A stretch of DNA of 64,000 nt from Candidatus Aenigmatarchaeota archaeon. GTDB lineage: Archaea; Aenigmatarchaeota; Aenigmatarchaeia; Aenigmatarchaeales; Aenigmatarchaeaceae. A model generated the notes under the pieces. It ran no database searches. It worked only from the letters and a program-made list of their open reading frames with translations, and had not been told where the DNA came from. The translations under genes and the position numbers were made by a program. Positions 4,329 to 52,389 of the stretch are shown in pieces. Each line of letters opens with the position of its first letter. The first letter of the stretch is position 1. Where the stretch lies: NCBI GenBank assembly GCA_043802485.1, contig JAZDKZ010000006.1, forward strand, positions 135,497 through 199,496. The letters are read 5' to 3'.

Positions 4329-4356
4329 TTTTATATAACGGAAGTGTATTAATTAT

Positions 4357-6225: not shown

Positions 6226-6818
6226 AAGAATACAATGTTATTGTTACTGGTGTTGGAGGCCTAGGGGCTATGACTCTTGGAACCGTCATAGCTCAAGCAG
6301 CTTTGAAACAGGGATATGATGTGAGGACTTCCGAGCTTCATGGTCTGGCGCAAAGAGGCGGAAGCATGCTGCTGCATTTGAGAATCGGCAAGAAGCTGTA
6401 CACGCCGCTGGTTCTGGAAGGGGAGGCTAATCTCGTTATTGCTCTTGAGCCTCTGGAGGCTCTGAGAACTACATACTTTGGCTCAAAGAAACAGAAGACT
6501 ACATTCCTTATTGATAATTTCATCCTTCCTCCAATGACTGTTTCGGTTCTAGGAGAGGAATACCCAACCATGAAGAGCATTGTCAAAAAGATAAAGCCCT
6601 TTGCAGGGAAGGTAATAACTCTCGATGCTTCAGATATTGTTGAGAAGGAGACAGGTTCTATAATAGCATCAAATATCTTTGTCTTCGGCTATACCATCGG
6701 CAAGAAGCTGCTGCCGATAAAGAAGAAGTTTGCTCTTGAGGCTTTGGCAGAGGTTGTGCCTCCGAAATACCTGGAAATGAACAAGAAAGTCTTTGAGATG
6801 GGCTTGAATCACAAATAG
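6222..6818 (+). CDS. iorB: Indolepyruvate:ferredoxin oxidoreductase, beta subunit
   Basis: The start was moved to ATG 6222, which overlaps the iorA stop as ATGA. MKEYNVIVTGVGGLG...SELHGLAQRGG is typical of IorB / pyruvate-ferredoxin oxidoreductase gamma-like subunits. Confidence 0.85.
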   Translation: MKEYNVIVTGVGGLGAMTLGTVIAQAALKQGYDVRTSELHGLAQRGGSMLLHLRIGKKLYTPLVLEGEANLVIALEPLEALRTTYFGSKKQKTTFLIDNFILPPMTVSVLGEEYPTMKSIVKKIKPFAGKVITLDASDIVEKETGSIIASNIFVFGYTIGKKLLPIKKKFALEALAEVVPPKYLEMNKKVFEMGLNHK

Positions 6819-6820
6819 TT

Positions 6821-7051
6821 CTACCAGTTCTCTTCTGTCTCGCTATCCAGCTCTTCCACCATCTCTTTCAGCTCTTCCTTTTCCATCTCGTCTGTGTCAT
6901 CCTTTCTTTCCAAAAGAGAGGCGCTTATGTCGCCGAACTTTTGCATGGGCCTGTCGCAGCATATCAGGGTGCCGCCGCCCACGCTCACCATCTCTACCAC
7001 GTTGCCGCAGACATTGCACTTGTACTTGTCACCGACGTTCTTGGTGCTCAT
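6821..7051 (-). CDS. Desulforedoxin-domain protein with an acidic C-terminal tail
   Basis: 76 aa from the internal ATG at 7049-7051. YKCNVCGNVVEMVSVGGGTLICCDRPM is the Dx-type CxxC...CC iron site. The tail is E/D-rich. A BRE/TATA-like box lies about 35 nt upstream. Confidence 0.6.
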   Translation of the reverse strand: MSTKNVGDKYKCNVCGNVVEMVSVGGGTLICCDRPMQKFGDISASLLERKDDTDEMEKEELKEMVEELDSETEENW

Positions 7052-7083
7052 AATATAGATGTTTTGTTCCAAGTTCTTAAATT

Positions 7084-7097
7084 TTGCTATAAGCTTT
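7084..7097 (-). promoter_or_regulatory. BRE/TATA-like promoter box for the desulforedoxin-like gene
   Basis: The coding strand reads AAAGCTTATAGCAA about 35-40 nt upstream of ATG 7051. It fits the box recurring across the window. Confidence 0.4.
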
Positions 7098-7187
7098 AAA
7101 TTCCGGCTTTTCCATATCTTTAATATGGACAAGCTTGAAATTATTGAAGAATTGGAAGACCATGATCTTTTGATATTCCACTACTGA

Positions 7188-7769
7188 TTAATCTACCAGA
7201 CCTTTTTCTAAGCAGTGTTTCATGAACTGGTAGATGTTCTTTTTGGATTTTATCCATAAAGGTTCCAGTTCAATTGACTTGTCTATCGCGGCTTTATAGA
7301 GCTTATTATTCAGTTCAGATTTCACATAGCCTTTGTATTTCGGGAACAATTCTTCTGCTATTCTGTTAAGAACAAGATAAACAGGTATATGTGTGAAGGT
7401 TTTGGGATTTTTTGATTTGTTGATAAGATATCTGAATTTTATTGGAGTGTTATAGTGTATGAGTTCATGAGTCAGAAGTTTTATTCTCCAGTTATTATCA
7501 CCCATTTTTACTGTTAATGGTGACGAAATGCCTGCTGCAGGCTTTGGTAAATCTTCAACAATAAAACAATTTATTTCCTTTAATTTCCAATCGAAACCAT
7601 TATACTTTTCTATCCTGTTCAGTATCTTCTTTTCCTTCTTTCTCCAATCCGTTTCAAATTTTTTAGACCACTTTTTTACTTTTTGCAGGTCCTTTTCAGT
7701 ATAATTCTTCCCAACATTTCCCGTTAAAACCATATTATAAGATAATGACACTATGAATTTGACTTTCAT
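7188..7769 (-). CDS. Hypothetical protein with an HExxH motif
   Basis: 193-aa ORF. The only recognisable element is LLTHELIHYN (a possible zinc-metallopeptidase motif). It looks AT-richer than its neighbours. Confidence 0.45.
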   Translation of the reverse strand: MKVKFIVSLSYNMVLTGNVGKNYTEKDLQKVKKWSKKFETDWRKKEKKILNRIEKYNGFDWKLKEINCFIVEDLPKPAAGISSPLTVKMGDNNWRIKLLTHELIHYNTPIKFRYLINKSKNPKTFTHIPVYLVLNRIAEELFPKYKGYVKSELNNKLYKAAIDKSIELEPLWIKSKKNIYQFMKHCLEKGLVD

Positions 7770-7857
7770 TTTATCATCTACTCATAATATGATTCGTTCA
7801 AGTCCCCTATTGTTGCCGCAGATATTACAACGGTATACCTGCTTTTGTACTGTCATG

Positions 7858-8433
7858 CTAATACTCTTCACACTTGAGCTGATAGTAGCTTCTTGGATGG
7901 CCGCAAGCCGGGCACTTTAGCGGTGGCTCCTTGCCGAAATGCGCGTAGCCGCATTCCCTACATATCCACCAGACTTCCTTGTCCTTCTTGAAGACTGTCC
8001 CCTCTTCCAACTGCTTCAAAATTTTCAGGTATCTTTCCTCATGATGCTTTTCTGCAACAGCTATCGACCTTAGCCTTGCCGCAATCTCGGGAAAGCCCTC
8101 CTTTTCTGCAATGTCTGCGAATCCAGGGTACATCTTGGTGTGTTCATAGTTCTCTCCTGCTATCGCTGCCTTGAGGTTTTCCTTTGTCGTACCCAAAGTT
8201 GTGGGCGCTGCTGCTTCTATGATTATCTCGTCCATTCCCTTGTCTTTCAGTTCGTTTATCAGCTTGAAGAGCCAGCTCGCGTGCTCCTTCTCATTGTCTG
8301 CGGTTATCAAGAAGATTTCTGCGATTTGCTCGAAACCTTCTTTCTTCGCAATTTTCGAATAGAAGGTGTACCTGTTTCTTGCCTGGCATTCGCCGATAAA
8401 GGCCTTTGTCAAATTTTTTATAGTCTCATTCAT
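7858..8433 (-). CDS. rbr: Rubrerythrin
   Basis: 191 aa. Ferritin-like diiron domain (ExxH motifs) plus a C-terminal rubredoxin-like CRECG...CPACG. Confidence 0.9.
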
Positions 8434-38944: not shown

Positions 38945-39030
38945 AATAACACTTTGTAGTAACTTTATATAACTTTTAACATCTTATTATTAAAACAATA
39001 GCGGGGTAGGGCAGCCAGGAGTGCCCGTCG

Positions 39031-39051
39031 AGATGTTAAAACATCGCGGAT
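39031..39051 (+). other. tRNA intron 1 (21 nt, non-canonical position 29/30)
   Basis: Central helix CCGT (39025-28) pairs with GCGG (39046-49). It is flanked by the 3-nt bulges CG|A and AT|G. The intron hairpin is GATGT/ACATC. Confidence 0.6.
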
Positions 39052-39054
39052 GGC

Positions 39055-39753
39055 TCATAAGGATGTCTTGGGACACCCGAAGGTCGGAGGTTCAAATCCT
39101 TCCCCCGCTATCATTATTTTTCTATATCTTTCTATTTTTTTAGAATTAGAAAAGCCTATTCTTTTATGCCATTTCATTAGCTCTTTAATACCATTTAGCT
39201 GTATTCTTATATTTTCGTTATCTATCTTGTAAGCACCAAATCTGAATTTATTTCTTTCCATAATCTCTATGAACTGTTGTTGCATGGGAGATTTACAAAT
39301 CTTCATCTCTAACCTTGGGTATTGAATGCCGTTGTTATTTACTATTGTCAAACACCCATCAGTATCAAAATACCCTTTTAAAACAAAGTTCTCTAATTTG
39401 TTTCCAAAGTAAATACTAGGTATTCTGGCTCGATTTCTTTTTGGAGACAGCGACATACCCAATCTTTCCGTCAAAAACTTTAAAACACCCTTGTTGAATA
39501 ACAGCAAATCAAGAGTGTTTTCTCCTTTTCTGAACCTTTTCAGCGGTCTTAGGCCGAATAGATTCTCTACAAGATTTTCTATATAGGCCGCATACTTTGT
39601 TTCATCTTTAGAGTTCAAAGAAATTTTTATTCTATTTTGGATACTTATCTTGTTCTTAAATTTACATTTGTACACGCCTATAGAACCGTCCCCCAACATT
39701 ATCCCAACAAATTCAGCAAGTTTCTTGTCACATAAGGTGGGTGTCTTCACCAT
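39055..39753 (-). CDS. Double-motif LAGLIDADG homing endonuclease
   Basis: 232-aa ORF. First motif LAEFVGIMLGDGSIG, second motif FVLKGYFDTDGCL. The last ~18 codons (IAGEGFEPPTFG...) are antisense read-through of the tRNA 3' half. Confidence 0.8.
   Translation of the reverse strand: MVKTPTLCDKKLAEFVGIMLGDGSIGVYKCKFKNKISIQNRIKISLNSKDETKYAAYIENLVENLFGLRPLKRFRKGENTLDLLLFNKGVLKFLTERLGMSLSPKRNRARIPSIYFGNKLENFVLKGYFDTDGCLTIVNNNGIQYPRLEMKICKSPMQQQFIEIMERNKFRFGAYKIDNENIRIQLNGIKELMKWHKRIGFSNSKKIERYRKIMIAGEGFEPPTFGCPKTSL
39060..39074 (+). other. tRNA intron 2 (15 nt, canonical position 37/38)
   Basis: Central helix CTCA (39054-57) pairs with TGGG (39069-72). It is flanked by the 3-nt bulges TA|A and AC|A. 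Confidence 0.6.
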
Positions 39754-39814: not shown

Positions 39815-39967
39815 TTATTTCTTGAAACCCAGAGTCTGAAAAATATTAATGTCGTCACCGACTTCCACATCGTCAGTAACACTGATTTCCTTCTTGGTGC
39901 CCTCGACCAGAACGATGGCCTTCTTGTCCTTCAGTTCAAGAACTTTGCCTTTTTGTAACAAACACAT
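39815..39967 (-). CDS. hypC: HypC/HupF-like hydrogenase maturation chaperone (short, 50 aa)
   Basis: An internal ATG gives the N-terminus MCLLQKGKVLEL...AIVLVEG..KEISV...VGDDINIF. The essential Cys2 and a beta-barrel-like pattern are present. Confidence 0.5.
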   Translation of the reverse strand: MCLLQKGKVLELKDKKAIVLVEGTKKEISVTDDVEVGDDINIFQTLGFKK

Positions 39968-40505: not shown

Positions 40506-40539
40506 ACATTAATTAATCATGTTGAACCTAATAAATTTT

Positions 40540-40944
40540 ATGAAGGTCATCATGAGCATCGGCAACCCCATAAAGTCTGACGACAACATAGGCAACATTG
40601 TTCTTGAAAAAATCGAAACCGATGCTCTCAAAATAAGGGCAGAAACGTCTCCTGAGAACTTTATAGATAGGATGAAGGGTTGTGATGAGATAATAATTCT
40701 TGATGCCCTTCAGTTCGGGGGAGATGTGGGTGAGGTGAAAGTTTTCGAACTATATGACGTTGAGGACAGGTTGCTGTCAACGCACAGCATACCGATTGAA
40801 CTTTTGAAAAAGTTCTTTCCTAATTCTAAAATAAAGGTAATAGGGATTCAGCCAAAGAATCTTGACTTTGGAGAAGAAATAAGCAAAGGGCTTGAAGTTA
40901 AGATGGATGAAATCGTTAAAAAGGTCACTTTATTTTCAAAATAA
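40540..40944 (+). CDS. hycI: Hydrogenase maturation endopeptidase (HycI/HybD family)
   Basis: MKVIMSIGNPIKSDDNIGN...IILDAL...LSTHSIP matches the GNxxxxDDG / D / H metal-ligand pattern of the family. Confidence 0.7.
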   Translation: MKVIMSIGNPIKSDDNIGNIVLEKIETDALKIRAETSPENFIDRMKGCDEIIILDALQFGGDVGEVKVFELYDVEDRLLSTHSIPIELLKKFFPNSKIKVIGIQPKNLDFGEEISKGLEVKMDEIVKKVTLFSK

Positions 40945-41794
40945 AGAACGCGCCAATCAGAATCAAAATGGATCCTATAATTTGGAATTCTGATAAAATT
41001 TCTTCTAAAAATAAATAAGAGAAAAATAAAGAAATTGGTGGTGACAGTAAAAGCAAAGTAGAGGCCTTGGAAACGCTTATCATTTTTATCGAATAGTACC
41101 AGAAAAATACATAGAGGAACAGAAGAGATGTTGAAATTCCAATGTAAAAAATCTGTTCATACGTTAATAGCAACAACTGGTTGAAACTCCCTGTCAAAAC
41201 CACAATGGAAAAAAGAACAACCGACGCAAAAAACATTCTGCAAAAAGAAACAACAAAGTTTGACTCCTTTTTTATCATCGCGCTTTTTGATATTATGTTT
41301 TCAATCGCAAAAAGAACAGTTGCAGCAATAACTAAAATATCCCCGACAGCAATGTCAAAAGTTATTGCACTAGAAGATAATAGGTATGTTCCCAGAATCA
41401 TTACGAACATTGAATATATCTGTAGTCTTTTTAGTTTTTCCTTTAAAAAAGCAAAGGCAAGGACTGTGATGAACAAAGGCAGGAGCTTATGCAGAAAGGA
41501 TGCTCTTCCTGCGGTTGTTAAACTCAACCCGTTGAAGAATGCTAGAAATCCTAAACCAGCAACAAAGCCTATAGAAATCAGAGTTTTCCAAGAGACTGTG
41601 TTTAATTTCTTAAAGCTTAGTTTGTTTCTATAAAATGAAATAAAAAAGAACCCGATTCCCACAAAAAATGTCCTTAACGCAGTGAACAGTGTCGGATCCA
41701 ATGAAACAAGAAAGGATTTGTTAGCAACAAAAGCAATACCGCTAACTAAAGCAGTTATTATGGCAAACAATATTCCAAGCTTTTCCTTTTTCAT
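40925..41794 (-). CDS. EamA/DMT-superfamily transporter
   Basis: 289 aa, about 10 TM helices, with two EamA-like halves. Its start overlaps the stop of the upstream hydrogenase ferredoxin subunit (ATGA). Confidence 0.75.
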   Translation of the reverse strand: MKKEKLGILFAIITALVSGIAFVANKSFLVSLDPTLFTALRTFFVGIGFFFISFYRNKLSFKKLNTVSWKTLISIGFVAGLGFLAFFNGLSLTTAGRASFLHKLLPLFITVLAFAFLKEKLKRLQIYSMFVMILGTYLLSSSAITFDIAVGDILVIAATVLFAIENIISKSAMIKKESNFVVSFCRMFFASVVLFSIVVLTGSFNQLLLLTYEQIFYIGISTSLLFLYVFFWYYSIKMISVSKASTLLLLSPPISLFFSYLFLEEILSEFQIIGSILILIGAFFILKIK

Positions 41795-42123
41795 TTTACC
41801 AGGTTTTTAAGTTTTTTCTTGTTTTGATCAGAAAACTCGAAATCGTTGCCGATTTCTATCGACTTGGGATTGGTCGGGCAGACGTCCTGGCACATGCCGC
41901 ACACGACGCATATCCCAAGGTCAAAGTCTATCTTGCCCTTCTTGTAGAATTTCACAGCGCCCACAGGGCAGTACCTTTCGCACATCCTGCATCCAATGCA
42001 CCTTTCCGAGTAATAATTGATCCTGCCCCTGAACCTCTTGAAAGGCTTCAGCTTTTCCTTAGGATACCTTCTTGTAAAAGGCCTCTTGAACAAGCTAAGC
42101 AGAGCCTCCTTTATGATGCTCAT
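41791..42123 (-). CDS. Group 4 [NiFe]-hydrogenase 2x[4Fe-4S] subunit (MbhN/EchF/NuoI-like)
   Basis: 110 aa with CIGCRMCERYCP and CVVCGMCQDVCP. Confidence 0.8.
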   Translation of the reverse strand: MSIIKEALLSLFKRPFTRRYPKEKLKPFKRFRGRINYYSERCIGCRMCERYCPVGAVKFYKKGKIDFDLGICVVCGMCQDVCPTNPKSIEIGNDFEFSDQNKKKLKNLVK

Positions 42124-42968
42124 AGCACGCCCCTCATTATCAGTATGAAATCAACAAGCACGAAGAACATCACAAAAAAGTAGAAGCGGAAAGCCTGGTC
42201 TACCCTGAACCTAGAAGTTGTCGCCTGGGCCAGACCATACATGAAAAGGAAGAGAACGCTCATCGGCAGCAATATCATTATGTCCCTTCCGAAGAACAGC
42301 AGCGGCAGGAGGAAAACAAAAAACAGCCTCTTTACGGACATCGCCAAATTCATCAAAGCAAGGTTCTTCCCGCTGTACTCTGTCCTGCTCCCTCCCATTA
42401 TCTCTGTCGGAGCCTCTGTTGTATCGAATGGGGTAACATGAACTTCTAACAATGATATCAGCACCAAGCAAACAGAGGTTATGGGAAGAGCCAACAACAT
42501 CAAATTAGGCTGCAAGGCTATGAAAGAAATCACATTCGCATGCAGCATGAAGTTGAATATGGCTATGACAAGGGTTATCTCGTATACAATCATCAATATC
42601 ATCTCTCTCATAGAACCGATTATTGAAAAGGGATTGTCTGATGAAAGTCCTGCCAAAACATAGAACGAACTGGCCAGTATCGTCAAGTAGAGTAAAAGGA
42701 CGAAATCATAAGAGAAGCTTATTATTGAAAAAGGTATGAAGAGGAACAGGGCGTAGACTGACAGGAAATAGAGCAGAGGCGCATGCTTGTAGAACGGGTC
42801 GTTCTGCGTTTCCAGCGGCTTCTTGTCAAGCAGCTTCAGCAAGTCATAGAAGGGCTGGAGAACCGGCGGACCGATCCTGTTCTGGAACCTTGCGTTCAAC
42901 TTTCTCAATAAACCCTCGTACAACAACGCGATAAACGGAACAAGTAAAAAGAAAACTATCTCGTACAT
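42120..42968 (-). CDS. Group 4 hydrogenase membrane subunit (MbhM/EchB/NuoH-like)
   Basis: 282 aa, polytopic. The N-terminal RKLNARFQNRIGP is the NuoH/HycD hallmark. Confidence 0.8.
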   Translation of the reverse strand: MYEIVFFLLVPFIALLYEGLLRKLNARFQNRIGPPVLQPFYDLLKLLDKKPLETQNDPFYKHAPLLYFLSVYALFLFIPFSIISFSYDFVLLLYLTILASSFYVLAGLSSDNPFSIIGSMREMILMIVYEITLVIAIFNFMLHANVISFIALQPNLMLLALPITSVCLVLISLLEVHVTPFDTTEAPTEIMGGSRTEYSGKNLALMNLAMSVKRLFFVFLLPLLFFGRDIMILLPMSVLFLFMYGLAQATTSRFRVDQAFRFYFFVMFFVLVDFILIMRGVL

Positions 42969-44134
42969 GCATACTTCCTCCTGAACTCTGACTCACAATT
43001 CGATTCAACCTTGCCGTCCTTTGCCACAAGGACCCTTTCAAGGCAACTGAAGCAAGGATCGAGCGAGCCTATTATGACAGGTATGTCCCCTATCTCCCTT
43101 TCCAAAAGTATCTTCTCTGCAATCTTCAGATATGCGAAAGTGGGCGTTCTCATCTTGACCCTTTCTATCTTGCCGTCATTGAACTTCATGTAGTAGAACA
43201 GTTCTCCCCTCGGAGCCTCGACTCTTCCAGTGCCCTCACCGTCAGGCACGTTAGTGATCAAGAACTTTGGTATCTGCTTGCTCGGCAGCATGTCAAGTAT
43301 CTGTCTTATTATCTTGTTGGACTCCAGAACTTCGGCTATCCTGACATAGGTCCTGTCAAAGGAGTCGCCATTGCTTGCAAGCACCTCTTTGAACTCGAAC
43401 TTTTTGTATATGCCGTAAGGCGGGTCAAACTTTCTTATGTCGCACGAAACGCCGCTAGCCCTTGCGTTCGGACCGATAAGACAGTACCTCTTGGCATCCT
43501 TTTTGGTTATTATTCCGACATCCTTTAGCCTAGCCTTTATGACCTTGTCAGTCTTTATTTCCTTCAGGTAGTCCTGAATCCTCCTGTCAACGCTTTCTAT
43601 TCTTTCAAGAATGAACTTCTTGCTGCCGTCCTCCAAGTCGTAGCGGACAGTCTTTATCTTGTTAAAGTTGTGGTGGACCCTTCCGCCCGTCAGCTTCTCG
43701 AAGATGTCAATTATCTTCTCCCTCTCCCTCCAGAAATACATGAACATGGTCTCGTAGCCTATCTCGTGGGCAATGACGCCCAACCAGAGAATGTGGCTAT
43801 GCAGCCTTTCCAGCTCCATCATCAACGCCCTTATCAGTTTCACCTTTTCCTCTGGCTCATACTTGAGTATCCCTTCGACCGTTCTGCAATAAGCATTTTC
43901 ATGGGCAGCAGAGCATATGCCGCAGATTCTCTGAGAAGTGTAGAGTGCAGAATCAGGGTTCTTGCCTTCCATAACCTTCTCTATGCCTTTGTGTGTGTAA
44001 CCCATCCTTATGTTTACGTCCTTGATTATGTTGCCGTCTAGGCTAATCCTCAGGCACATTGGCTCTTTCAATGTAGGGTGCTGCGGACCTATGGGCAATG
44101 TATAGTCATGTGTTATCTCATGCATTCTTATCAT
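42956..44134 (-). CDS. Group 4 [NiFe]-hydrogenase large subunit (MbhL/EchE/NuoD-like)
   Basis: 392 aa. The N-terminal Ni-Fe ligand motif is RICGICSAAH and the C-terminal one is DPCFSCLER. A ~25-aa C-terminal extension follows. Confidence 0.9.
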   Translation of the reverse strand: MIRMHEITHDYTLPIGPQHPTLKEPMCLRISLDGNIIKDVNIRMGYTHKGIEKVMEGKNPDSALYTSQRICGICSAAHENAYCRTVEGILKYEPEEKVKLIRALMMELERLHSHILWLGVIAHEIGYETMFMYFWREREKIIDIFEKLTGGRVHHNFNKIKTVRYDLEDGSKKFILERIESVDRRIQDYLKEIKTDKVIKARLKDVGIITKKDAKRYCLIGPNARASGVSCDIRKFDPPYGIYKKFEFKEVLASNGDSFDRTYVRIAEVLESNKIIRQILDMLPSKQIPKFLITNVPDGEGTGRVEAPRGELFYYMKFNDGKIERVKMRTPTFAYLKIAEKILLEREIGDIPVIIGSLDPCFSCLERVLVAKDGKVESNCESEFRRKYACTR

Positions 44135-44435
44135 CCTTAAGCATTGGCGGCTTTCCCTTCCAGTTGTCTGGCAGGAACAGTTTTAGATGAAGGTTGAGAT
44201 TGCCCACAAATTCCACCCCGAAAAAATCATGTATCTCTCTCTCATAGTAATCAGCGCTGGGATATTCCTCGGTTATGCTCTCGACCTTTGTGTCATCCTT
44301 TGGAACCTTGAACGTTAGAGTTTCGACCTTACCTTTGCTGTCAAAATAATAGTTCAAGAGGAAGTCGCCTTCCTGCCTGCATACTATCGCAACCAGCCTA
44401 AGGCCTTTTTTTAGTTTTTCTCTTACCTTTATCAT
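44118..44435 (-). CDS. NuoC/MbhK-like hydrogenase subunit (short)
   Basis: 105 aa. ...YPSADYYEREIHDFFGVEF resembles the conserved NuoC core (W.ERE..D.FG). Confidence 0.65.
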   Translation of the reverse strand: MIKVREKLKKGLRLVAIVCRQEGDFLLNYYFDSKGKVETLTFKVPKDDTKVESITEEYPSADYYEREIHDFFGVEFVGNLNLHLKLFLPDNWKGKPPMLKDDKNA

Positions 44436-44835
44436 CCTTCACACCCAGCAGTTTTATTATCCCGTCTATTATCGCTTCAGGCCTCGGGGGGCAGCCTGGT
44501 ATGTACATGTCAACAGGTATCACCTTGTCAACCGGCCCTGCGAAATTGTAGCACTCCTTGAAAGGGCCTCCGGTTATGGCGCAAGAGCCTATGGCGATGA
44601 CCTTCTTGTCCCCAGCCATCTGATCATATATTGTTTTCAGTCTTTCCTTGCTCTGGTTGTTCACTATGCCGCTTACCAGCAAAATATCAGCATGCCTTGC
44701 GCTCTCCTTGAGCTGGCAGCCGAACCTCTCGATGTCGTACCTGGGAGTTATGAGAGCGAATATCTCCAGTGTGCAACCGTTGCAACCTCCTGCGTCAAAG
44801 TTGCTCACCCATGGAGACTTTATTATCCTCTTCAT
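44398..44835 (-). CDS. Group 4 hydrogenase small subunit (MbhJ/EchC/NuoB-like)
   Basis: 145 aa. GGCNGCTLE, GSCAITGG and PGCPPRPE provide the ligands of the proximal [4Fe-4S] cluster. Confidence 0.85.
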   Translation of the reverse strand: MKRIIKSPWVSNFDAGGCNGCTLEIFALITPRYDIERFGCQLKESARHADILLVSGIVNNQSKERLKTIYDQMAGDKKVIAIGSCAITGGPFKECYNFAGPVDKVIPVDMYIPGCPPRPEAIIDGIIKLLGVKDDKGKRKTKKRP

Positions 44836-44993
44836 ATGGCAACACCTGCTATAAGCAGCATTATCAATAATACAATGAAGACTAGAAATATTCTCTTCTT
44901 GTCAAAGAACTTGCCAAGGTCCTTTGGCACTATTATCTTCGCAGGGTCCCTTTCCCCTCCCATGTAGATGTCGATCTTGTTTTTCTTCTTCAT
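44832..44993 (-). CDS. 53-aa single-TM protein in the MbhI position of the hydrogenase operon
   Basis: MKKKNKIDIYMGGERDPAKIIVPKDLGKFFDKKRIFLVFIVLLIMLLIAGVAI. ATGA overlaps with both flanking genes indicate translational coupling. It is below the track cut-off. Confidence 0.5.
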   Translation of the reverse strand: MKKKNKIDIYMGGERDPAKIIVPKDLGKFFDKKRIFLVFIVLLIMLLIAGVAI

Positions 44994-45874
44994 GCCATCA
45001 CCAGGTTAAGCAGCTCCACCTGCAGGTGGGGCAGTATCCCTAAAATAATACATGTGATCGCCAAAAGGCCGTTCACAACGGTTATCGGCTCCGGTATCCT
45101 CTTCTGCCTGCCCTCGCCCACCAGTAGGACGTAGACAATCTTGTAGTACATTATGAAAAGCAGAAGGGCGATGAAGATGCCCATGACAGTTATTATGGGC
45201 GTCAGAACAAAGCTGCCCACGAACAGGAACCATTCTGAAACAAACATATTGAAAGCTGGAAGGCCTGCAAGGGACAGGCAGGCTATCGTTGCAAAGATGT
45301 CGTTCGACCTGCTCTGGAAGTACGAGCCCTCCAGCTCGTGGATAAAGGTCTTCTTCCTACCGAATATCCAGAGGGTCAGGAAAAACAAAAGACCTGTGAA
45401 AGTGTAGTTGAATATCTGTATAACGCTCAGTATGCCTGCCTTGCCAAGCAGCATTGTCACAGACAGATCAAGGACAACGAACAGCACCTGTATGGTGTTG
45501 GAAATTATGAGATATTTTTTCAGCTTGTTCTCGAATATGCCGAATATGGAAAGCAGGGACATGAATACTAGACACGACAGGGCTATCATGTAAAAGGGGA
45601 AGGCTATCCCGGTCTGGAAAAGGTTCAGGAAAAACCACGACATAAGCACGGCTGAAAACATGTTGAGCGTGGCGAACTCGCCAAAGTCATAGTGCTTGTA
45701 GAAAAGGAACAACAAAAGCACGAACGCGGAAATGTACCAGTAGAAGAGCGAAGTTATTGAGAATATCATCAGCGAAATTATCAGAATAAAGTTCTTCTTC
45801 TCATAGAAGAACGAATGCACGGCGAACGAGAGCCCTAGTATGGATATAAGAGCAGCGAAAAAAACCTGCAGCAT
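44990..45874 (-). CDS. Truncated Mrp/NuoL-like antiporter-type membrane subunit (MbhH position)
   Basis: 294 aa, polytopic. LKKYLIISNTIQV and LAGLPAFNMFVSEWFLF resemble the conserved central helices of the NuoL/M/N family. It is roughly half the usual length. Confidence 0.5.
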   Translation of the reverse strand: MLQVFFAALISILGLSFAVHSFFYEKKNFILIISLMIFSITSLFYWYISAFVLLLFLFYKHYDFGEFATLNMFSAVLMSWFFLNLFQTGIAFPFYMIALSCLVFMSLLSIFGIFENKLKKYLIISNTIQVLFVVLDLSVTMLLGKAGILSVIQIFNYTFTGLLFFLTLWIFGRKKTFIHELEGSYFQSRSNDIFATIACLSLAGLPAFNMFVSEWFLFVGSFVLTPIITVMGIFIALLLFIMYYKIVYVLLVGEGRQKRIPEPITVVNGLLAITCIILGILPHLQVELLNLVMA

Positions 45875-45939
45875 AAACTTATTTTGCTAGGGCCGCCTCT
45901 TATTATTAACTATCTTGCCAAAACAACACACTGTTTTGC

Positions 45940-48654
45940 TCAGATCCTATTTTTTATAAACTTGTACATCTCCCCGGACCAGAAAACCATGGACGAGAAA
46001 AGCACTATTGTCAATAGCTCCTTATAGCTCAGGGAGACGAACTGGAATATGCTCTGGAAAAACGGCGTGTATATCACCATAATCAAAAGAGCGACCGAGA
46101 CTAAAAGTGATAAGACAACATACCTGTTGCTAAAGAACCCTATCTTGAAGACGGATTTCTTGAGAGACCGCATGTTAAGCACATTGAAAAGCTGGGTGAA
46201 TACCATGACAGCAAAGGCTCCTGTTCGCGCCTTTTCCAGTCCTTGCGGCAGATATATGTTAAAAATAGACAAGGTGAAAACGACCATAATGCTTGTCATC
46301 AAAAGCAGAAACGGTATTATCTCCTTTGATAAAATACCTTCTTTTGCTTTTCGTGGCGCTTCTTCTAAAACATCTCCGTGTCCTGGTTCAAAAGCTAAAG
46401 CAGAAGCATTAGTGCCATCTGTAACCAAGTTAAGCCACAGTATCTGAGCAGGCAACAAAGGCAAAGGCAGACCAAGAAGCAATGTGCTTATAATAGTTAT
46501 AGATTCTGCAAAATTGGTAGTGACAAGAAAAGCGCTTGTTTGGCGAGTATTTTTAAAAACAATCCTTCCTTCTTCTATTGCATTAACAATAGAAGCAAAA
46601 TTATCATCAACAAGCACGATCTCGCTAGACTCCCTGGACACGTCTGTGCCAACTATCCCCATAGCAATGCCCACGTCAGCCTTCTTCAGCGCCGGAGCGT
46701 CGTTCACCCCGTCGCCAGTCATTGCAACAACATGACCTTGCTTCTGCAGAGTCTCGGCAATCCTCAACTTCATGTCTGGCGTCAGGCGGGCAAAAACAGA
46801 AACGTTTTTCACAGCGTCGTCAAATTCCTTTTCTGACATGTCTGACAGTTCCTGGCCTGTGAGGGCTTCCGGATGTCTGCTCTTTGTTTCTTTGTCAATA
46901 AGACCGACCTCTTTGGCAATCGCAACAGCAGTTCCCTTGTGATCTCCTGTTGTCATTACAACACGGATGCCGGCCTTCCTGGCTTTGACAATAGCTTCTC
47001 TTACTTCTGGTCTTGTGGGGTCTTTCATTCCAACCATACCAACGAAAACAAGCTTATTAACTAAGGTCTCTGACAAGCCGTTCATATGGGACGGCACCTC
47101 CCTGTAAGCCAAGGCAAGGACCCTCATTGACTGGTTTGTCAGACGCTCCATCTGGGACGAGATGTCTTTACGATGCTTTTGTGTTATCTTCTTGCACTTG
47201 CTGTTTTCAAGGATGCAGGTAGAATTGTTAAGAATGGCTTCAGGCGCGCCGACAACATATATCTCCTTTCTTTTGGATTTCTCCGGGAAAATCAGGAGGG
47301 ACGCCTCACACCTCATGTCCTGGTTAAAGGGCAGCTCGTCTATCTCCTTGACATTCTCCAATATCTTTTCCTTTGTCAAACCTGCCTTTTCTGCCAAGAC
47401 AGTAAGGGCAGCCTCTGTAGGGTCGCCGACAACCTCATACCTGTCGCCCTCTTTCAAAAGCTCGGCATCGCTGGATACAGCAGCAATCTCGAGCAGCTTT
47501 GTCAGGGAGGGATTGCTTGAGGGATGGATGATTTTCTCTTCCTGATAGAAGCTTCCAGACGGCACCCAGCCCTTTCCAGATACTGTAATCTCGGCATCAC
47601 CTGGCAGAATAACCTTCTCCACATTCATCGTGTTCTCGGTGAGCGTCCCTGTCTTGTCTGTCATGATGACTGTCACCACGCCCAGCGTCTCTGTCGACGG
47701 CAGGGTCCTGATGATGGCGTTCCTCTTCGCCATCCTGTGCGCACCAATGGAAAGCACGATTATCAGCACTGCAGGCAATCCTTCAGGAATGCCTGAAACA
47801 AGCGAAGCCAAAGTAAATAGAAATATCTCCATGAACTCAAAGCCCCTGACAAAGAAGCCGACAAAGAATGTTATCGATGCACCGGCAGCTGCTATGATGC
47901 CCATCTGCTTTGCCAGCTTGTCGGTCTTTTCCTTGAAATGCCCCTTTACCCGTTTTATCTTTTCAATGTCCTGGGCTATCTTGCCGAACGCCGTGCTGAT
48001 GCCTGTTGCAGTGACAACCGCCTTGGCTTGCCCCCTTGCCACGAAAGTGCCCATCCAGACCATGTTCTTGCGGTCGGCCAAGGCAGTCCTTTCGGGTAGA
48101 GCTTTGATGTCCTTTTCAACTGGCAGCGACTCTCCTGTCAGGGAAGCCTCCACTGTACTGAAAATTTTTTCTTCCACAAGCCTTGCGTCCGCAGGGACCT
48201 TGTCGCCCTCCTCCAACAGGATAATGTCGCCGGGCACCAGCTCCCTTGCGGCTATTTGCAGCAATTCTCCCCCTCTGTAGACCTTTGCGTGAGGCACAAT
48301 CATCTTTTTCAATGCCTGGATTGATTGGTCAGCCCTGTACTCTTGCACAAATCCCACCACAGCGTTAATCAGGATAACGCCAGTGATTATGTAGACGTCG
48401 ATTATGCTGTCTGAAAGAAAAGAGATGCCAGCAGCAATGATGAGAATGTAAATCAGAATACTATTGAACTGCTTGAGAAAAGTCAGAACAGGATTCCTTG
48501 CCTTTTTTTCAGGTATTTCATTGGCGCCGAATTTTCCTAGGCGGCTCTTTGCCTCTTTCCCCGAAAGCCCGTTTATGTTGGAAGACAGTCTCTCCATTGT
48601 TCTCTCAACAGTCTGCGAATGGGGCAGATTGCTGTTGTATTTTTTCTTTTTCAT
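45940..48654 (-). CDS. P2-type cation-transporting ATPase (Ca2+-ATPase-like)
   Basis: 904 aa with DKTGTLT, IPEGLPAV, TGD and VAMTGDGVNDAPALKKADVGIAMG. Confidence 0.9.
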   Translation of the reverse strand: MKKKKYNSNLPHSQTVERTMERLSSNINGLSGKEAKSRLGKFGANEIPEKKARNPVLTFLKQFNSILIYILIIAAGISFLSDSIIDVYIITGVILINAVVGFVQEYRADQSIQALKKMIVPHAKVYRGGELLQIAARELVPGDIILLEEGDKVPADARLVEEKIFSTVEASLTGESLPVEKDIKALPERTALADRKNMVWMGTFVARGQAKAVVTATGISTAFGKIAQDIEKIKRVKGHFKEKTDKLAKQMGIIAAAGASITFFVGFFVRGFEFMEIFLFTLASLVSGIPEGLPAVLIIVLSIGAHRMAKRNAIIRTLPSTETLGVVTVIMTDKTGTLTENTMNVEKVILPGDAEITVSGKGWVPSGSFYQEEKIIHPSSNPSLTKLLEIAAVSSDAELLKEGDRYEVVGDPTEAALTVLAEKAGLTKEKILENVKEIDELPFNQDMRCEASLLIFPEKSKRKEIYVVGAPEAILNNSTCILENSKCKKITQKHRKDISSQMERLTNQSMRVLALAYREVPSHMNGLSETLVNKLVFVGMVGMKDPTRPEVREAIVKARKAGIRVVMTTGDHKGTAVAIAKEVGLIDKETKSRHPEALTGQELSDMSEKEFDDAVKNVSVFARLTPDMKLRIAETLQKQGHVVAMTGDGVNDAPALKKADVGIAMGIVGTDVSRESSEIVLVDDNFASIVNAIEEGRIVFKNTRQTSAFLVTTNFAESITIISTLLLGLPLPLLPAQILWLNLVTDGTNASALAFEPGHGDVLEEAPRKAKEGILSKEIIPFLLLMTSIMVVFTLSIFNIYLPQGLEKARTGAFAVMVFTQLFNVLNMRSLKKSVFKIGFFSNRYVVLSLLVSVALLIMVIYTPFFQSIFQFVSLSYKELLTIVLFSSMVFWSGEMYKFIKNRI
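46658..46734 (-). repeat. 77-nt segment nearly identical (75/77) to 51571-51647 in inverted orientation
   Basis: Base-by-base comparison of the GDGVNDAPALKKADVGIAMG coding stretch of the two ATPase paralogs. Confidence 0.85.
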
Positions 48655-48705
48655 TTGTTATTAATAGACAATGCCCCATAAAATAGCTTTGCTTCCAGGC
48701 GACAG

Positions 48706-49653
48706 CTAAGCAACATGTCTCATCAAAATGCTGGCTACCACGAACAGAACATAGAGCAATATGAGCACAGAGCCCTCCCTTCTTGTCATGACCTTCCCTG
48801 TCTCTGCAAACACCAAGAATGTCACAAGGGAGACCACTATGAAGACAGAGCTGATGGCAAAGGAGGTGAAAGGTGCTTGAATCGGGCTTATGATAGAGAC
48901 CAAGCCGAGCACAAGAGTGGAATTGAACGCCAAGCTTCCAAGAAGATCACCAAGGGCAACGCTGCTGTGACCACGCATCACGCAGCCCAGCTCAAAAGAG
49001 AGCTCAGGAAGGGAAGTTCCCGGAGAAACTATCAGCAGGCCTATGAGAACAAGGGGAAACGCCAATATTGTCGCTATTTCCGTTGCCACATGAACAACCA
49101 CCCTGGCAGAGACCACCAGTAATATCAGGCTTAATACGAATATTGCCAAGTTGCGGTAAAGCCTTATCTTGACAAAGCTCTTTTTCTTGGCAGTCTTGAA
49201 CTTCTTTCTCACCGTGAACAGCCTTACCACATAGAGGGCAAAAGCCGCAACCAAGATGATGCCGTCTGTCCTTGACAGCTCTTGGTCCAAAAACAGGATC
49301 AGGGGCAGGACAACAAGAAAGGCGATGATGAACAAAGTGCTTTTCTCCAGCTGGGATTCGAACTTTATTTTTTTACCGACAAACGCGACAAGCCCCATCA
49401 CTAGGGCAATGTCTACAACAGCAGCGCCGAGAACATTGCCGAAAGAGAGCGACGAAATGCCGCCCAACGCGGACAGAATGCCCACAGAAATCTCTGGCAA
49501 TGACGTGAGTATTCCTATCAGGAGAAAGCCTACCAGGAACTCCCTCAGATGATAGTACTGCTCAACCTTTATTATGCTCTTCACAACAAAGTGGCTGCTC
49601 ATAATCAAGCCAGTGCAGCCTGCAATAAAAATAAGGAAATCAATAAACAGCAT
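48706..49653 (-). CDS. CaCA-family sodium/calcium exchanger (YrbG-like)
   Basis: 315 aa. The two alpha-repeats are GNVLGAAVVDIALVMG and GDLLGSLAFNSTLVLG. Confidence 0.85.
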   Translation of the reverse strand: MLFIDFLIFIAGCTGLIMSSHFVVKSIIKVEQYYHLREFLVGFLLIGILTSLPEISVGILSALGGISSLSFGNVLGAAVVDIALVMGLVAFVGKKIKFESQLEKSTLFIIAFLVVLPLILFLDQELSRTDGIILVAAFALYVVRLFTVRKKFKTAKKKSFVKIRLYRNLAIFVLSLILLVVSARVVVHVATEIATILAFPLVLIGLLIVSPGTSLPELSFELGCVMRGHSSVALGDLLGSLAFNSTLVLGLVSIISPIQAPFTSFAISSVFIVVSLVTFLVFAETGKVMTRREGSVLILLYVLFVVASILMRHVA

Positions 49654-49731
49654 GAGAATAACTTATGAAAACCCAATTATAAAGTTTATTCGCATGGTTA
49701 AACTTTAAGTCCAGAAAATCAACAAAATAGT

Positions 49732-52389
49732 ATGAAGAAATGGCATGCCATGAATTCTAACGACGTTTTCATGGACCTGAAGACTAACAAGAACGGCCTT
49801 GACAGCTCCGAGGCAAAGCTGAGAATAAACCAGTACGGCCCGAACCAGCTGGAAGGCAAAAAGGGAAAGAATGTCCTTGCCATTCTCGTTAACCAGTTCA
49901 AGAGCTTCCTGGTCATCCTGCTGCTTCTGGCTGTGGCCATATCAGTCTTCCTCGGCTTTTACTCTGACGAAAGCCACTTTGTGGATGCGGCGGTGATAGG
50001 CTCCATAATAGTTTTGAACTCCATCCTCGGCTTTTACCAGGAATTCAAGGCAGAAAAAACGCTGGAAGCCCTGAAAAGGATGGTGGTAAGGAAGGTCCAT
50101 GTTATCAGGAACGGAGAGAATGTCCAAATAAAGACAGAAGAGCTTGTCCCTGGGGACATTGTTCTTCTGGAAGCAGGCAACAGGATACCAGCAGACTTGC
50201 GACTTTTCGAGACGCTTGACCTGAAGATAGACGAATCAGCGCTAACCGGCGAATCTGTTCCTGTAAGCAAAACTACCAAAACCCTCAAAAGCGCAGAACC
50301 ATCCGAAAGGAACAACATGGCGTTCATGGGAACACTTGTTTCATATGGCAAGGGAAAAGGCATTGTTGTTTCTACAGGCATGTCCACAGAGATGGGCAAC
50401 ATAGCCCATATGGTCCAAGAGAGGGAAGAGGAGACTCCTCTGCAGAAAAAACTGCAGAAATTTGGAAAAACCATAGGTCTGGTCGTTTTTGCGATAACGC
50501 TTATAATTTTCATTCTAGGTATCATCAGGTCAGAAGACATTTTTAACATGTTCATGACAGCTATGAGTCTGGCCATATCTGCCGTGCCCGAGGGTTTGCC
50601 TGCAGTGATAACTCTGACTCTGGCAATAGGAACGCAGAGAATGTTGAAAAGGAATTCCATTGTAAAGAGGTTGGCAGCAGTGGAAGGATTAGGATCAACA
50701 ACAGTCATATGCGCTGACAAGACGGGGACAATGACTACGAACGAGATGACTGTCAGAAAGGTTTGGGTCTCTGGAAAGACGATAGACGTTACAGGCGTTG
50801 GCTTTGAACCAAAAGGAGAGTTTCTCCTCGGCAAAGGGAAAGTGGACCCGCGCAAGGAAGGAGCCCTTGGCCTGCTACTTAGGATATCATATTTTTGCAA
50901 CGATTCTGTGCTAAAGGAAAAGCCCAAATGGTATGTGATAGGCGACCCCACAGAAGGCGCGCTGAAAGTTCTCGCGATAAAAGGAGGCATAATTCAGGAT
51001 TCATCTACCATTGATGAGATACCGTTCTCTTCTGAAAGAAAGAAGATGACCACCATACACAAAATAGGCAACGATGTTGTTGCCTATACCAAAGGCGCGC
51101 CTGAGACTATTCTAAACGACTGTGACAAGATGTACGTCAGCAGAAAATTGGGCAGCAATGACAGGGAAACCATACTGAAAACTGTCCGGAAGCTTTCCTC
51201 CCAAGGCCTTAGAGTGCTGGCCTTTGCCTACAAACCGTTGGACAAAAAGTATTCGCTAAAGTCTGTTGAAAAGAACATGACCTTTGTCGGCCTGGCCGCT
51301 ATGATAGACCCTCCGAGAAAGGAGACCAAAGAAGCCATAAGGCTGTGTAAGCAGGCTGGCATAAGGACGATAATGATAACAGGCGACCATGAGCTGACAG
51401 CAAAGGCAATAGGCTCTGAAATCGGGCTCAACGGAAACGCGATAAGGGGCGAGGATCTGGACAAACTGACTGATGAGAAATTTAGGGAAGTGATCAATAA
51501 TACTACAATATTCGCCAGAATATCGCCCCAGCACAAAATGAGGATAGTTGACACCCTGAGGTCGATGGGCCATGTTGTTGCAATGACTGGCGACGGGGTG
51601 AACGACGCGCCGGCGCTGAAGAAGGCTGACGTGGGCATTGCCATGGGCATAAAGGGAACAGACGTGGCAAAAGAGGCTGCTGACATGGTGCTGCTTGACG
51701 ACAACTTCTCAACGATAGTGGCTGCTGTCGAGGAGGGAAGGGGAATCTATGACAACATAAAGAAGTTCGTAAAGTTCCTTCTATCCGCCAACTTTGACGA
51801 GCTGTTCATCGTAACTGCTGCAGTTCTGCTAAGCATAAAGGACCCTTCGACAGGCTTGATAGTGATACCTTTTACGGCTGTCCAGATTCTCTGGATAAAC
51901 CTGATAACAGACGGCATGCCTGCCCTAGCGCTTGGCGTTGACCCGAAGGAGAAGGACATAATGAAAAGGCCTCCCAGAGACCCGAAAAAAGGCATTCTTA
52001 ACGGAATCATATTGTTCATAATTGTCGCTGCAATATTGGATTTTACTACATCGTTCATTCTTTTCAACGACGTTCTGGCAACAACAGGAAACATAAACAA
52101 GGCAAGAACCATGCTCGTCACCCAGTCGATACTGTTCGAGTTCCTCTTCATCTTCAACTGCAGGTCTGAGACAAAGTCAGTGTTCAGGAAGAACCCGCTG
52201 GAAAACAAGAAGCTGTTGCTTGCGATAGCTGTATCTATTGTGCTGCAGCTGACAATGATATACACGCCGCTCAGGAGCATCCTAGGGTTTGTCGAACTGA
52301 CAGCCATGGACTGGGTGCCTATATTATTGTTCTCCTCTGTAGGACTCTTGGTCTTGCCTGAAATTTTTATAAGAAAACATAAAAAATGA
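49732..52389 (+). CDS. P2-type cation-transporting ATPase (Ca2+-ATPase-like), second paralog
   Basis: 885 aa with DKTGTMT, VPEGLPAV, TGD and VAMTGDGVNDAPALKKADVGIAMG. Confidence 0.9.
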   Translation: MKKWHAMNSNDVFMDLKTNKNGLDSSEAKLRINQYGPNQLEGKKGKNVLAILVNQFKSFLVILLLLAVAISVFLGFYSDESHFVDAAVIGSIIVLNSILGFYQEFKAEKTLEALKRMVVRKVHVIRNGENVQIKTEELVPGDIVLLEAGNRIPADLRLFETLDLKIDESALTGESVPVSKTTKTLKSAEPSERNNMAFMGTLVSYGKGKGIVVSTGMSTEMGNIAHMVQEREEETPLQKKLQKFGKTIGLVVFAITLIIFILGIIRSEDIFNMFMTAMSLAISAVPEGLPAVITLTLAIGTQRMLKRNSIVKRLAAVEGLGSTTVICADKTGTMTTNEMTVRKVWVSGKTIDVTGVGFEPKGEFLLGKGKVDPRKEGALGLLLRISYFCNDSVLKEKPKWYVIGDPTEGALKVLAIKGGIIQDSSTIDEIPFSSERKKMTTIHKIGNDVVAYTKGAPETILNDCDKMYVSRKLGSNDRETILKTVRKLSSQGLRVLAFAYKPLDKKYSLKSVEKNMTFVGLAAMIDPPRKETKEAIRLCKQAGIRTIMITGDHELTAKAIGSEIGLNGNAIRGEDLDKLTDEKFREVINNTTIFARISPQHKMRIVDTLRSMGHVVAMTGDGVNDAPALKKADVGIAMGIKGTDVAKEAADMVLLDDNFSTIVAAVEEGRGIYDNIKKFVKFLLSANFDELFIVTAAVLLSIKDPSTGLIVIPFTAVQILWINLITDGMPALALGVDPKEKDIMKRPPRDPKKGILNGIILFIIVAAILDFTTSFILFNDVLATTGNINKARTMLVTQSILFEFLFIFNCRSETKSVFRKNPLENKKLLLAIAVSIVLQLTMIYTPLRSILGFVELTAMDWVPILLFSSVGLLVLPEIFIRKHKK
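51571..51647 (+). repeat. Partner of the 77-nt inverted repeat at 46658-46734
   Basis: See 46658-46734. Confidence 0.85.

Follow-up and report, generated by a model that had tools for sequence, protein, structure and literature searches.

Can a [NiFe]-hydrogenase pared down to seven genes, with only half of its antiporter-like subunit, still evolve H2 and energise a membrane? This question is raised by a stretch of 64,000 nucleotides (nt) from Candidatus Aenigmatarchaeota archaeon (contig JAZDKZ010000006.1, positions 135,497 to 199,496), hereafter the window, whose minus strand carries an operon for a membrane-bound group 4 [NiFe]-hydrogenase. We refer to its genes as H, I, J, K, L, M and N, after the MbhH-I-J-K-L-M-N genes of the Pyrococcus membrane-bound hydrogenase (MBH). 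An initial annotation, made from the letters alone, had described a seven-gene Mbh-type enzyme in this very order; all seven open reading frames (ORFs) were found in place, five of them could be typed with Pfam or NCBIfam models, and both their positions and their domain matches bear out the order (Table 1). The genome, which had been taken for a reduced, DPANN-like one, is indeed a DPANN genome of 0.77 Mb (768,849 bp in 7 contigs, 89% complete, 0% contamination) assigned to the Aenigmatarchaeota, and it has a single [NiFe] large-subunit gene. As argued below, the cassette represents a miniaturised form of the group 4 (Mbh/Ech-like) membrane-bound [NiFe]-hydrogenases that is conserved across the DPANN, and on balance we lean towards its being an active, ferredoxin-oxidising and H2-evolving electron sink that may energise the membrane.

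The genomes compared throughout were metagenome-assembled genomes (MAGs). The order H-I-J-K-L-M-N recurs in 16 loci, found in MAGs that bear the labels Aenigmatarchaeota, Woesearchaeota, Iainarchaeum and Micrarchaeota, and three further loci (L026, L027 and L033) carry the cassette; the loci with the H most similar to that of the window (88% and 78% identity) belong to Aenigmatarchaeota MAGs. A quick maximum-likelihood tree was built from 97 large subunits, with no Ech, Eha, Ehb or Coo references among them. In it, the 18 sequences from loci with a short H group in a single clade (SH-like approximate likelihood ratio test, 100), with MbhL of Pyrococcus furiosus outside it on a long branch (1.59) and HycE elsewhere, also on a long branch. 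Next in similarity, at 39-47% identity, are large subunits of Anaerolineae, Omnitrophota, Hadarchaeia, Asgard archaea, Bathyarchaeia and others. The DPANN cassette is thus a reduced derivative inside a larger, mostly uncharacterised branch of group 4. The term Mbh-type, used in the initial annotation, can therefore be kept for what gene order and nearest structures suggest, whereas the separate clade of the large subunits leaves membership of subgroup 4d not demonstrable.

The peripheral arm formed by J, K, L and N is complete, with every cluster ligand and every Ni-Fe ligand present. Among solved structures, L is closest to MbhL (6cfw_L, 8e-72, 38% identity) and then to Escherichia coli HycE (1e-57), and its RICGICSAAH and DPCFSCLER motifs align exactly with the ligand motifs of both, so that the four Ni-Fe ligands claimed earlier, namely, C71, C74, C361 and C364, are not misassigned. 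In an alignment of the DPANN homologues with MbhL and HycE these cysteines are invariant, together with R367 and many other active-site residues, and E24, which is aligned with the proton-relay residue Glu21 of MbhL (PMC8679088), is conserved. The C-terminal extension that had been noted is a tail of 25 amino acids (aa) after R367, the residue after which HycI presumably cleaves; the four cysteines and a tail of 21-38 aa after DPCxxCxxR occur in 118 of 118 full-length large-subunit homologues. The nearby HycI-type protease gene is real as well: it lies about 0.85 kb from the 3' end of the operon, and 14 of the 16 DPANN loci, as well as L026, L027 and L033, have it next to the cassette. The best structural match of J is MbhJ (6cfw_J, 2e-44), with all cysteine motifs aligned, including the four cysteines for one [4Fe-4S] cluster (GGCNGC, GSC, GCPPRPE). 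K is shorter at its N-terminus than the outgroup proteins of 140-220 aa, which align with it from about residue 50-70 onwards.

The antiporter-like subunit H has no Pfam match above threshold, and the NCBIfam models for NuoM, NuoN, MrpD and HyfB/D match it only at their positions ~250-500; Pfam PF00361, too, is matched by its second half alone. Homologues of H between 288 and 317 aa long are numerous and vary little in length. When 1.84 billion representatives were searched with the family profile, no more than 18 clusters reached E <= 1e-30; 16 of these fall in that size range, and the other two, of 178 and 222 aa, cover just the C-terminal portion of the profile. In Micrarchaeota H is shorter still, at ~232 aa. 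Full-length antiporter-like proteins match the profile at positions ~75-295 only, by their residues ~245-480. The AlphaFold2 model of H, with 12 helices, a predicted local distance difference test score (pLDDT) of 88.9 and a predicted template modelling score of 0.88, retrieved NuoN, NdhB, HycC, MbhH and MrpD in Foldseek, with template modelling scores (TM-scores) of 0.6-0.72 normalised by the query and of ~0.4 normalised by the target; the latter value means that the model covers about half of the antiporter fold. The family profile aligns to MbhH 282-481, and hhalign against full-length relatives places residues 1-294 on 170-490 of 506, with confidence only from residue ~95 onwards and near zero before.

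Residues ~95-294 of H thus correspond to helices 9-14 of MbhH, NuoN and MrpD, and residues 1 to ~95 form four family-specific helices with zero conserved charged residues, so the equivalents of Glu143, Lys225 and Lys256 of MbhH are gone. The second five-helix antiporter repeat, with its broken transmembrane (TM) helix 12, is kept, and the first is lost along with its TM5 Glu, TM7 Lys and TM8 Lys; H is an antiporter-like subunit cut to that second repeat. The half-length subunit described in the initial annotation was therefore substantiated. Residue correspondences were obtained by aligning the family profile to MbhH, with residue roles taken from PMC8679088. Lys409 of MbhH is replaced by E214, a Glu in 110 of 111 homologues, which lies in the broken TM12 within the motif SLAGLP...FVSEW. 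In TM11, His346, His350 and Lys354 are replaced by Q153, Y157 and G161, respectively. The polar residues that the family itself conserves are E115, Q129, D136, Q153, N156, Y157, E214 and K245; E115 and D136 are near-invariant and K245 is invariant.

Local truncation or an assembly artefact could be ruled out as the cause of the short H, since the length of 288-317 aa is kept in more than 100 homologues. A split gene, with the missing N-terminal half encoded elsewhere, was also discarded: in 21 operon-bearing genomes we found no second PF00361 protein or fragment, and therefore neither a divided H gene nor an Mrp antiporter. This agrees with the earlier claim that MbhA-G and the Mrp module are lacking, as does the P-type ATPase gene upstream of H; no Mrp module lies beside the operon or elsewhere in these 21 genomes, in a search made with PF00361 and not with each of MrpB, C, E, F and G separately. 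An apparently short H in Hadarchaeia (L041, 333 aa) is an artefact, its ORF starting at contig base 13 of a cut gene. One H homologue is labelled 'energy-converting hydrogenase B subunit F' by the Joint Genome Institute (JGI), the sole link to Eha/Ehb. The membrane partner M matches MbhM (6cfw_M, 4e-26), and its E130 corresponds to MbhM Glu141. In MBH, Lys409 and TM12 face MbhM and MbhI, and the Glu143/Lys225 pair faces the Na+ module MbhG/D (PMC8679088); by these assignments, the DPANN enzyme would have shed both the Mrp module and precisely the half of H in contact with that module, a joint loss that we infer by analogy with MBH.

Peptide I, the 53-aa product encoded between H and J, is present at this position in every DPANN locus, including those missed by tblastn. 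It follows the pattern M-K-K-K ... Y-x-G-G-E-x-D ... P ... F-x-x-F-F-x-K-K, continued by a single hydrophobic helix, with Y10, G13, E14, P23, F29 and F30 invariant. No meaningful direct match was obtained in the PDB or Pfam, and EMC10, returned by the PDB search at E 1.4, is a chance match. The outgroup operons have, at the same position, ~110-aa proteins with three TM helices and a Y-A-C-G-E motif, which are NuoA/ND3 homologues (PDB E 4.5e-7; PF00507), and hhalign pairs peptide I with them over the Y-A-C-G-E loop (probability 68%, E 4.7e-5). MbhI has been described as the N-terminal part of NuoA, providing 'loop 1', a lateral helix and two TM helices (PMC8165549, PMC8679088). Since MbhI is the NuoA loop subunit and the loop profiles align, it is reasonable to equate the peptide with MbhI, as had been proposed; it is smaller than MbhI, however, and the homology is moderately supported. 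Peptide I is thus probably a one-helix remnant of the NuoA/MbhI loop-1 subunit.

The bioenergetic context of the operon is marked by a gap. A and B subunits of a rotary ATP synthase (PF00006) were absent from 20 of the 21 operon-bearing genomes, the Iainarchaeum MAG alone having them, and the A-ATPase genes of that one positive genome gave no tblastn match in the genome studied here. The ferredoxin-reducing partner that had been pointed to was, on the other hand, located in the window, where an aminotransferase gene and IorA/IorB-like genes occupy positions 3144-6818, the enzyme similar to indolepyruvate:ferredoxin oxidoreductase (IOR) being encoded at 4357-6818. Together with a rubrerythrin gene, this aminotransferase and the IorA/IorB-like 2-oxoacid:ferredoxin oxidoreductase make up a cluster at 3144-8433, which is plausible as a source of reduced ferredoxin accompanied by an oxygen-defence protein.

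If the hydrogenase is active, as we favour, reduced ferredoxin from 2-oxoacid:ferredoxin oxidoreductases, for example this IOR-like enzyme, would dock on N, and electrons would travel via three [4Fe-4S] clusters to the Ni-Fe site, where protons would be reduced to H2; the hydrogenase would thereby serve as the fermentative electron sink of the cell. L would presumably be processed by the adjacent HycI protease, helped by two HypC-like proteins. The half of H that is retained would be the one facing MbhM and MbhI in the Pyrococcus MBH structure, and the region between E130 of M and E214 of H would probably translocate at most a single ion (H+ or Na+) in each turnover. Such residual ion translocation is plausible because the TM12 Glu of H and the matching Glu of M are strictly conserved. 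The gradient would drive secondary transport, by way of the coupled EamA gene and the adjacent CaCA exchanger, and ion homeostasis, sparing ATP otherwise used by two neighbouring P-type ATPases. ATP production would not be among its uses, since no rotary (A/V-type) ATP synthase was detectable in the genome, and the earlier designation as energy-converting cannot refer to ATP synthesis.

Several observations weigh against this picture, and most of them concern the maturation of the Ni-Fe site. HypD (PF01924) was found in none of 31 genomes, namely, this one and 30 relatives, 14 of which are at least 90% complete; nor was it found in 14 further cassette-bearing DPANN genomes, or in 22 genomes of the phylum with a large subunit that shares at least 49% identity with the one studied here. 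A scan of 371 genomes of the phylum detected HypD in 11 (E 1e-114 to 1e-149), a large-subunit homologue in 102 and both in 8; as HypD is so readily detected, these negatives are not a problem of sensitivity. HypE was missing from all 23 operon-bearing genomes tested and full HypF from all 31, where only stand-alone acylphosphatase, YrdC-like and Kae1-like pieces were seen, none near the family cut-off. HydG was likewise missing from all 29 operon-bearing genomes tested, which rules out the HydG route as a substitute in this clade. HypA occurs in just three distinct operon-bearing genomes, this one not among them, and tblastn with the Hyp proteins of the outgroup operons retrieved only an acylphosphatase from this genome. 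The non-DPANN relatives of the operon carry hypA-F beside it. The search for hypA-F in the genome thus ended with HypC-like proteins only.

According to reviews, HypA-F are required for all [NiFe] hydrogenases (PMC12134894, PMC12130793), and because every characterised enzyme needs HypCDEF (PMC12134894), hydrogenase activity is not assured here. In the literature searched, which was incomplete, no report was found of carriers of a [NiFe] hydrogenase without HypDEF, whether among DPANN or other organisms. With HypD, HypE, HypF and HydG all absent, the origin of the Fe(CN)2CO moiety in L is unexplained; therefore, the initial conclusion that this is a genuine hydrogenase holds for ligands and tail but remains unsettled for the enzyme as a whole. 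The membrane arm adds its own objections: TM5 Glu, TM7 Lys, TM8 Lys and the TM11 His/Lys residues are all missing from H, and ion translocation by the complex is something that we purely infer.

Part of the maturation apparatus, namely, HycI, a 50-aa HypC-like protein and a 175-aa HypC-like fusion, is retained and syntenic, the 50-aa protein in L003, L006, L007 and L008 and the 175-aa protein in these loci and in L004. The latter joins an N-terminal helical domain of ~95 aa to a C-terminal oligonucleotide/oligosaccharide-binding (OB) fold of the HypC type, in which C97 and H147 correspond to Cys2 and His51 of HypC. Its AlphaFold2 model (pLDDT 94) matches Thermococcus kodakarensis HypC (2z1c) in Foldseek with a target TM-score of 0.68, and no structural match was found there for the N-terminal domain, which has C16, R18, RPIFS and H78-N79 invariant. 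The family comprises 37 proteins, most of them unnamed as to organism; the named members are all from Aenigmatarchaeota/Aenigmarchaeota, and two carry the JGI label 'hydrogenase maturation factor'. Both HypC-like proteins are candidate carriers in a non-canonical maturation route. The syntenic genes past this pair, which encode RNase HII, a small membrane protein, aspartyl-tRNA synthetase and geranylgeranyl reductase, were considered as new maturases and ruled out.

The gap in maturation and the losses in the membrane arm lead to different alternatives. It may be that the hydrogenase is active but pumps no ions, H and the 53-aa peptide being a mere anchor or scaffold for M in what would be a pure ferredoxin-reoxidising vent for reducing equivalents. 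The relay residues of the first half-channel and the TM11 His/Lys are all lost, no ATP synthase exists to exploit a gradient, and the Micrarchaeota have reduced H even further, all of which would fit. However, a mere anchor would have no need of the broken TM12 with its SLAGLP motif and invariant Glu, nor of E115, D136, K245, Q129, Q153, N156 and Y157, all of which are kept; the Glu that in MBH lies opposite Lys409 is present in M; and cells without an ATPase still require a membrane potential for transport. We therefore regard this possibility as unlikely, even if it is the most credible of the alternatives. Somewhat less credible still is that the cell cannot mature the enzyme alone, and that Fe(CN)2CO or whole Hyp proteins are supplied by a host, with the HypC-like pair as acceptors or carriers, or that some other route has replaced HypDEF. 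Here the pattern of the genomes is suggestive: the four enzymes HypD, HypE, HypF and HydG are absent from all operon-bearing genomes, yet HycI and the HypC-like carriers are kept in synteny, the ligand cysteines and the cleavable tail are strictly conserved, and the non-DPANN relatives have their hypA-F genes alongside. DPANN archaea are, moreover, generally known to rely on hosts for many building blocks (PMC8407114). Against this, MAGs are incomplete, including the present one, no host has been identified, and the Cys of the HypC-like fusion is internal and not N-terminal as in functional HypC. We also know of no precedent for one cell passing the Fe(CN)2CO synthon to another, which counts against supply by a host.

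The missing Hyp maturases would be explained at once if the complex derived from a hydrogenase but neither produced nor consumed H2 any more, be it a relic such as Ehr, Mbx or Mbs or a protein with a different metal site. The sequences speak against this: in the large subunits of Ehr, Mbx, Mbs and Nuo neither the ligand cysteines nor the C-terminal tail survive, whereas every homologue examined here keeps the four cysteines, the proton-relay Glu (E24), the tail and a dedicated HycI protease. This is the least likely of the readings, and we consider it very improbable. A broader proposition can be put forward tentatively, at somewhat less than an even chance: this DPANN clade keeps a ligand-complete [NiFe] hydrogenase, processed by its protease, and HypC-type carriers without the enzymes of Fe(CN)2CO synthesis; if active, it would obtain its cofactor from a host, in a form of 'cofactor piracy' via the HypC-like proteins, including the 175-aa fusion, or by an undescribed route; and the complex of ~1,380 residues would be the smallest natural ion pump of the complex I family and the sole redox-driven generator of membrane potential in cells devoid of ATP synthase.

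Should activity be the case, a NuoH-like subunit, half of an antiporter-like subunit and a one-helix NuoA remnant would set the lower size limit of the complex I and energy-converting hydrogenase superfamily, and the cassette would show, as an experiment of nature, which elements the coupling of redox chemistry with ion movement requires. DPANN cells without an ATP synthase would gain a plausible means of electron disposal and membrane energisation, which bears on the symbiont lifestyle. The consistent absence of HypDEF would challenge the textbook rule that every [NiFe] hydrogenase needs six Hyp proteins, and either host-dependent cofactor assembly or a new assembly route would become directly testable. 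Group 4 membrane-bound hydrogenases have already been published for non-thermal Aenigmarchaeota (PMC8407114), and a group 4e enzyme for a Micrarchaeota genome (PMC8561730), the class of the latter being the published call only. Thus, the presence of a hydrogenase in Aenigmarchaeota is not new; what appears new relative to the searchable literature is the predicted subunit anatomy, together with the maturase gap and the ATP synthase gap. In our incomplete search we did not find an antiporter-like subunit with the second repeat only and Lys409 changed to Glu, a NuoA-loop peptide, a clade-wide absence of HypDEF and HydG, or an absence of ATP synthase in such genomes.

Table 1. Features of the hydrogenase locus, with positions counted from the first letter of the window.
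Feature	Position	Strand	Match or remark
H, half-size antiporter-like subunit, 294 aa	44990-45874	minus	NCBIfam NuoM/NuoN/MrpD/HyfB/D, second-half matches
I, single-helix peptide, 53 aa	44832-44993	minus	no Pfam match; motif Y-x-G-G-E ... P ... FF-x-K-K, then one TM helix
J, NuoB/MbhJ-like small subunit, 145 aa	44398-44835	minus	PF01058, 7e-33
K, NuoC/MbhK-like subunit, 105 aa	44118-44435	minus	PF00329, 1.8e-19, profile positions 25-118
L, [NiFe] large subunit, 392 aa (389 aa from Met4)	42956-44134	minus	PF00346 and PF00374
M, NuoH/MbhM-like membrane subunit, 282 aa	42120-42968	minus	PF00146, 5e-53
N, NuoI/MbhN-like 2x[4Fe-4S] ferredoxin-docking subunit, 110 aa	41791-42123	minus	TIGR01971, 2.7e-23; two Fer4
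EamA-family (DMT) transporter gene	40925-41794	minus	PF00892, 6e-41
HycI-type large-subunit C-terminal endopeptidase	40519-40944	plus	PF01750, 1e-10; TIGR00072, 80.2 bits (cut-off 47.45)
HypC-like fusion protein, 175 aa	39978-40505	minus	PF01455, weak match, residues 97-165
Short HypC-like protein, 50 aa, N-terminus MCLLQKGKV	39815-39967	minus	PF01455, E 1.1e-4, residues 1-38, below cut-off
Spacer 5' of H, 65 nt	45875-45939	minus	holds AT-rich TTAATAATAA; sequence read directly
P-type ATPase gene	45940-48654		upstream of H, after the 65-nt spacer

The genes of the operon are tightly packed and translationally coupled. Reading of the junctions from H to N gave overlaps of 4, 4, 38, 17, 13 and 4 nt, confirming the range of 4 to 38 nt and the ATGA form reported for H/I and I/J, to which M/N can be added. 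N and the EamA-family gene are also joined by an ATGA overlap, because of which the transcription unit in this lineage probably has eight genes, with the EamA transporter as a lineage-specific eighth; the EamA gene follows N in L003, L006, L007 and L009 and is absent from this position in L002, L004 and L008. In the spacer before H, the AT-rich TTAATAATAA lies at 45900-45909, that is, 26-35 nt 5' of the ATG of H, and is a candidate archaeal TATA-like box; the box annotated upstream of the operon is promoter-like only. The next gene upstream, as annotated, encodes a P-type ATPase. The neighbourhood extends over 45940-52389, immediately upstream of the operon, where the gene of a CaCA Na+/Ca2+ exchanger stands between those of two P2-type cation ATPases of 904 and 885 aa; it is kept in six related loci, and this suggests an ion-homeostasis neighbourhood.

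Other observations concern the surroundings of the cassette here and elsewhere. At 38999-39753 of the window, an ORF of the LAGLIDADG type (39055-39753, weak Pfam matches) abuts a candidate intron-containing tRNA-Asn(GTT) at ~38999-39112, detected by ARAGORN in intron mode only; relative to related loci, the two form an insertion that separates the HypC-like gene from that of RNase HII. The NuoB-like gene of L014 (3419-5252) is apparently interrupted by an intein at the cluster-binding GGCNGC motif (...NCSG|CITGDTEVIL...), an insert of ~1.1 kb separates the NuoH-like and NuoI-like genes of L006 (11725-12826), and another lies between the NuoC-like gene and the large-subunit gene of L017 (9648-10811). 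A second type of group 4 hydrogenase, with a large subunit ~40% identical and with ligands and tail intact, occurs in other Aenigmatarchaeota families with larger genomes (L109, L110 and L111), at least in L111 with a full-length antiporter-like subunit of 471 aa; most genomes with this type are also without HypD. Finally, two contigs hold tandem arrays of three and two ORFs of ~450-490 aa (C5:67312-71634 and C2:34255-37030, respectively), each with a CxxxCxxC radical S-adenosylmethionine motif ~190-225 residues in.

Among known systems, MBH of P. furiosus (MbhA-N, PDB 6CFW, group 4d, Mrp-linked) shares the gene order H-I-J-K-L-M-N with the cassette and provides the closest solved structures to J, L and M. 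The Ni-Fe ligands, the proximal-cluster ligands and Glu141 of MbhM are kept, and MbhI derives from NuoA as a loop subunit without TM1, as the 53-aa peptide probably does too. The differences are the lack of the Mrp/Na+ module MbhA-G; an H of 294 aa against 510 aa for MbhH, without the half that bears Glu143, Lys225 and Lys256 and with Glu for Lys409; a peptide I of 53 aa with a single helix, where MbhI has a lateral helix plus two TM helices; shorter K, M and N; and a large subunit that does not nest with MbhL in the tree. Ech (EchA-F, group 4e), the classic 'minimal' energy-converting hydrogenase of six subunits, has the order NuoL-like, NuoH-like, NuoB, NuoC, NuoD, NuoI and a full-length EchA. 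It resembles the cassette in being a small, ferredoxin-dependent core with one antiporter-like, one NuoH-like and four peripheral subunits and no Mrp module, whereas the cassette has NuoH after NuoD, a half-size H and a NuoA-like peptide; the Omnitrophota loci in which the NuoH-like gene precedes the NuoB-like gene (L095 and L101) fall far from the DPANN clade.

Outside DPANN, the closest in sequence are group 4 operons, as yet uncharacterised, from Anaerolineae, Omnitrophota, Hadarchaeia, Asgard archaea and Bathyarchaeia, which share the J-K-L-M-N-HycI core and have a NuoA-like protein encoded directly upstream of J. They differ in their full-length antiporter-like subunits of 470-580 aa, often two of them or one accompanied by NuoJ/NuoK-like proteins, in the three TM helices of the NuoA-like protein and, in several cases, in adjacent hypA-F genes. 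A precedent for an antiporter-like subunit that works without N-terminal helices is metazoan mitochondrial ND2, whose mammalian chains of 346-347 aa are among the Foldseek matches of H (target TM-score 0.49-0.53). ND2 lacks TM1-3 only and keeps both half-channels, whereas DPANN H is without a recognisable first repeat altogether. Eha and Ehb (groups 4h and 4i) have 17-20 subunits, with many methanogen-specific membrane proteins and polyferredoxins (PMC3087415, PMC9635834), against only seven, or eight, genes in the cassette. Published work on EhaH and EhbF gave no guide as to how long these subunits are. With regard to maturation, the nearest parallel is that of archaeal [FeFe] hydrogenases which occur without the HydEFG maturases in streamlined archaea (Greening et al. 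2024, PMC11216029); they are alike in being hydrogenases without known maturases, and unlike in enzyme class and cofactor.

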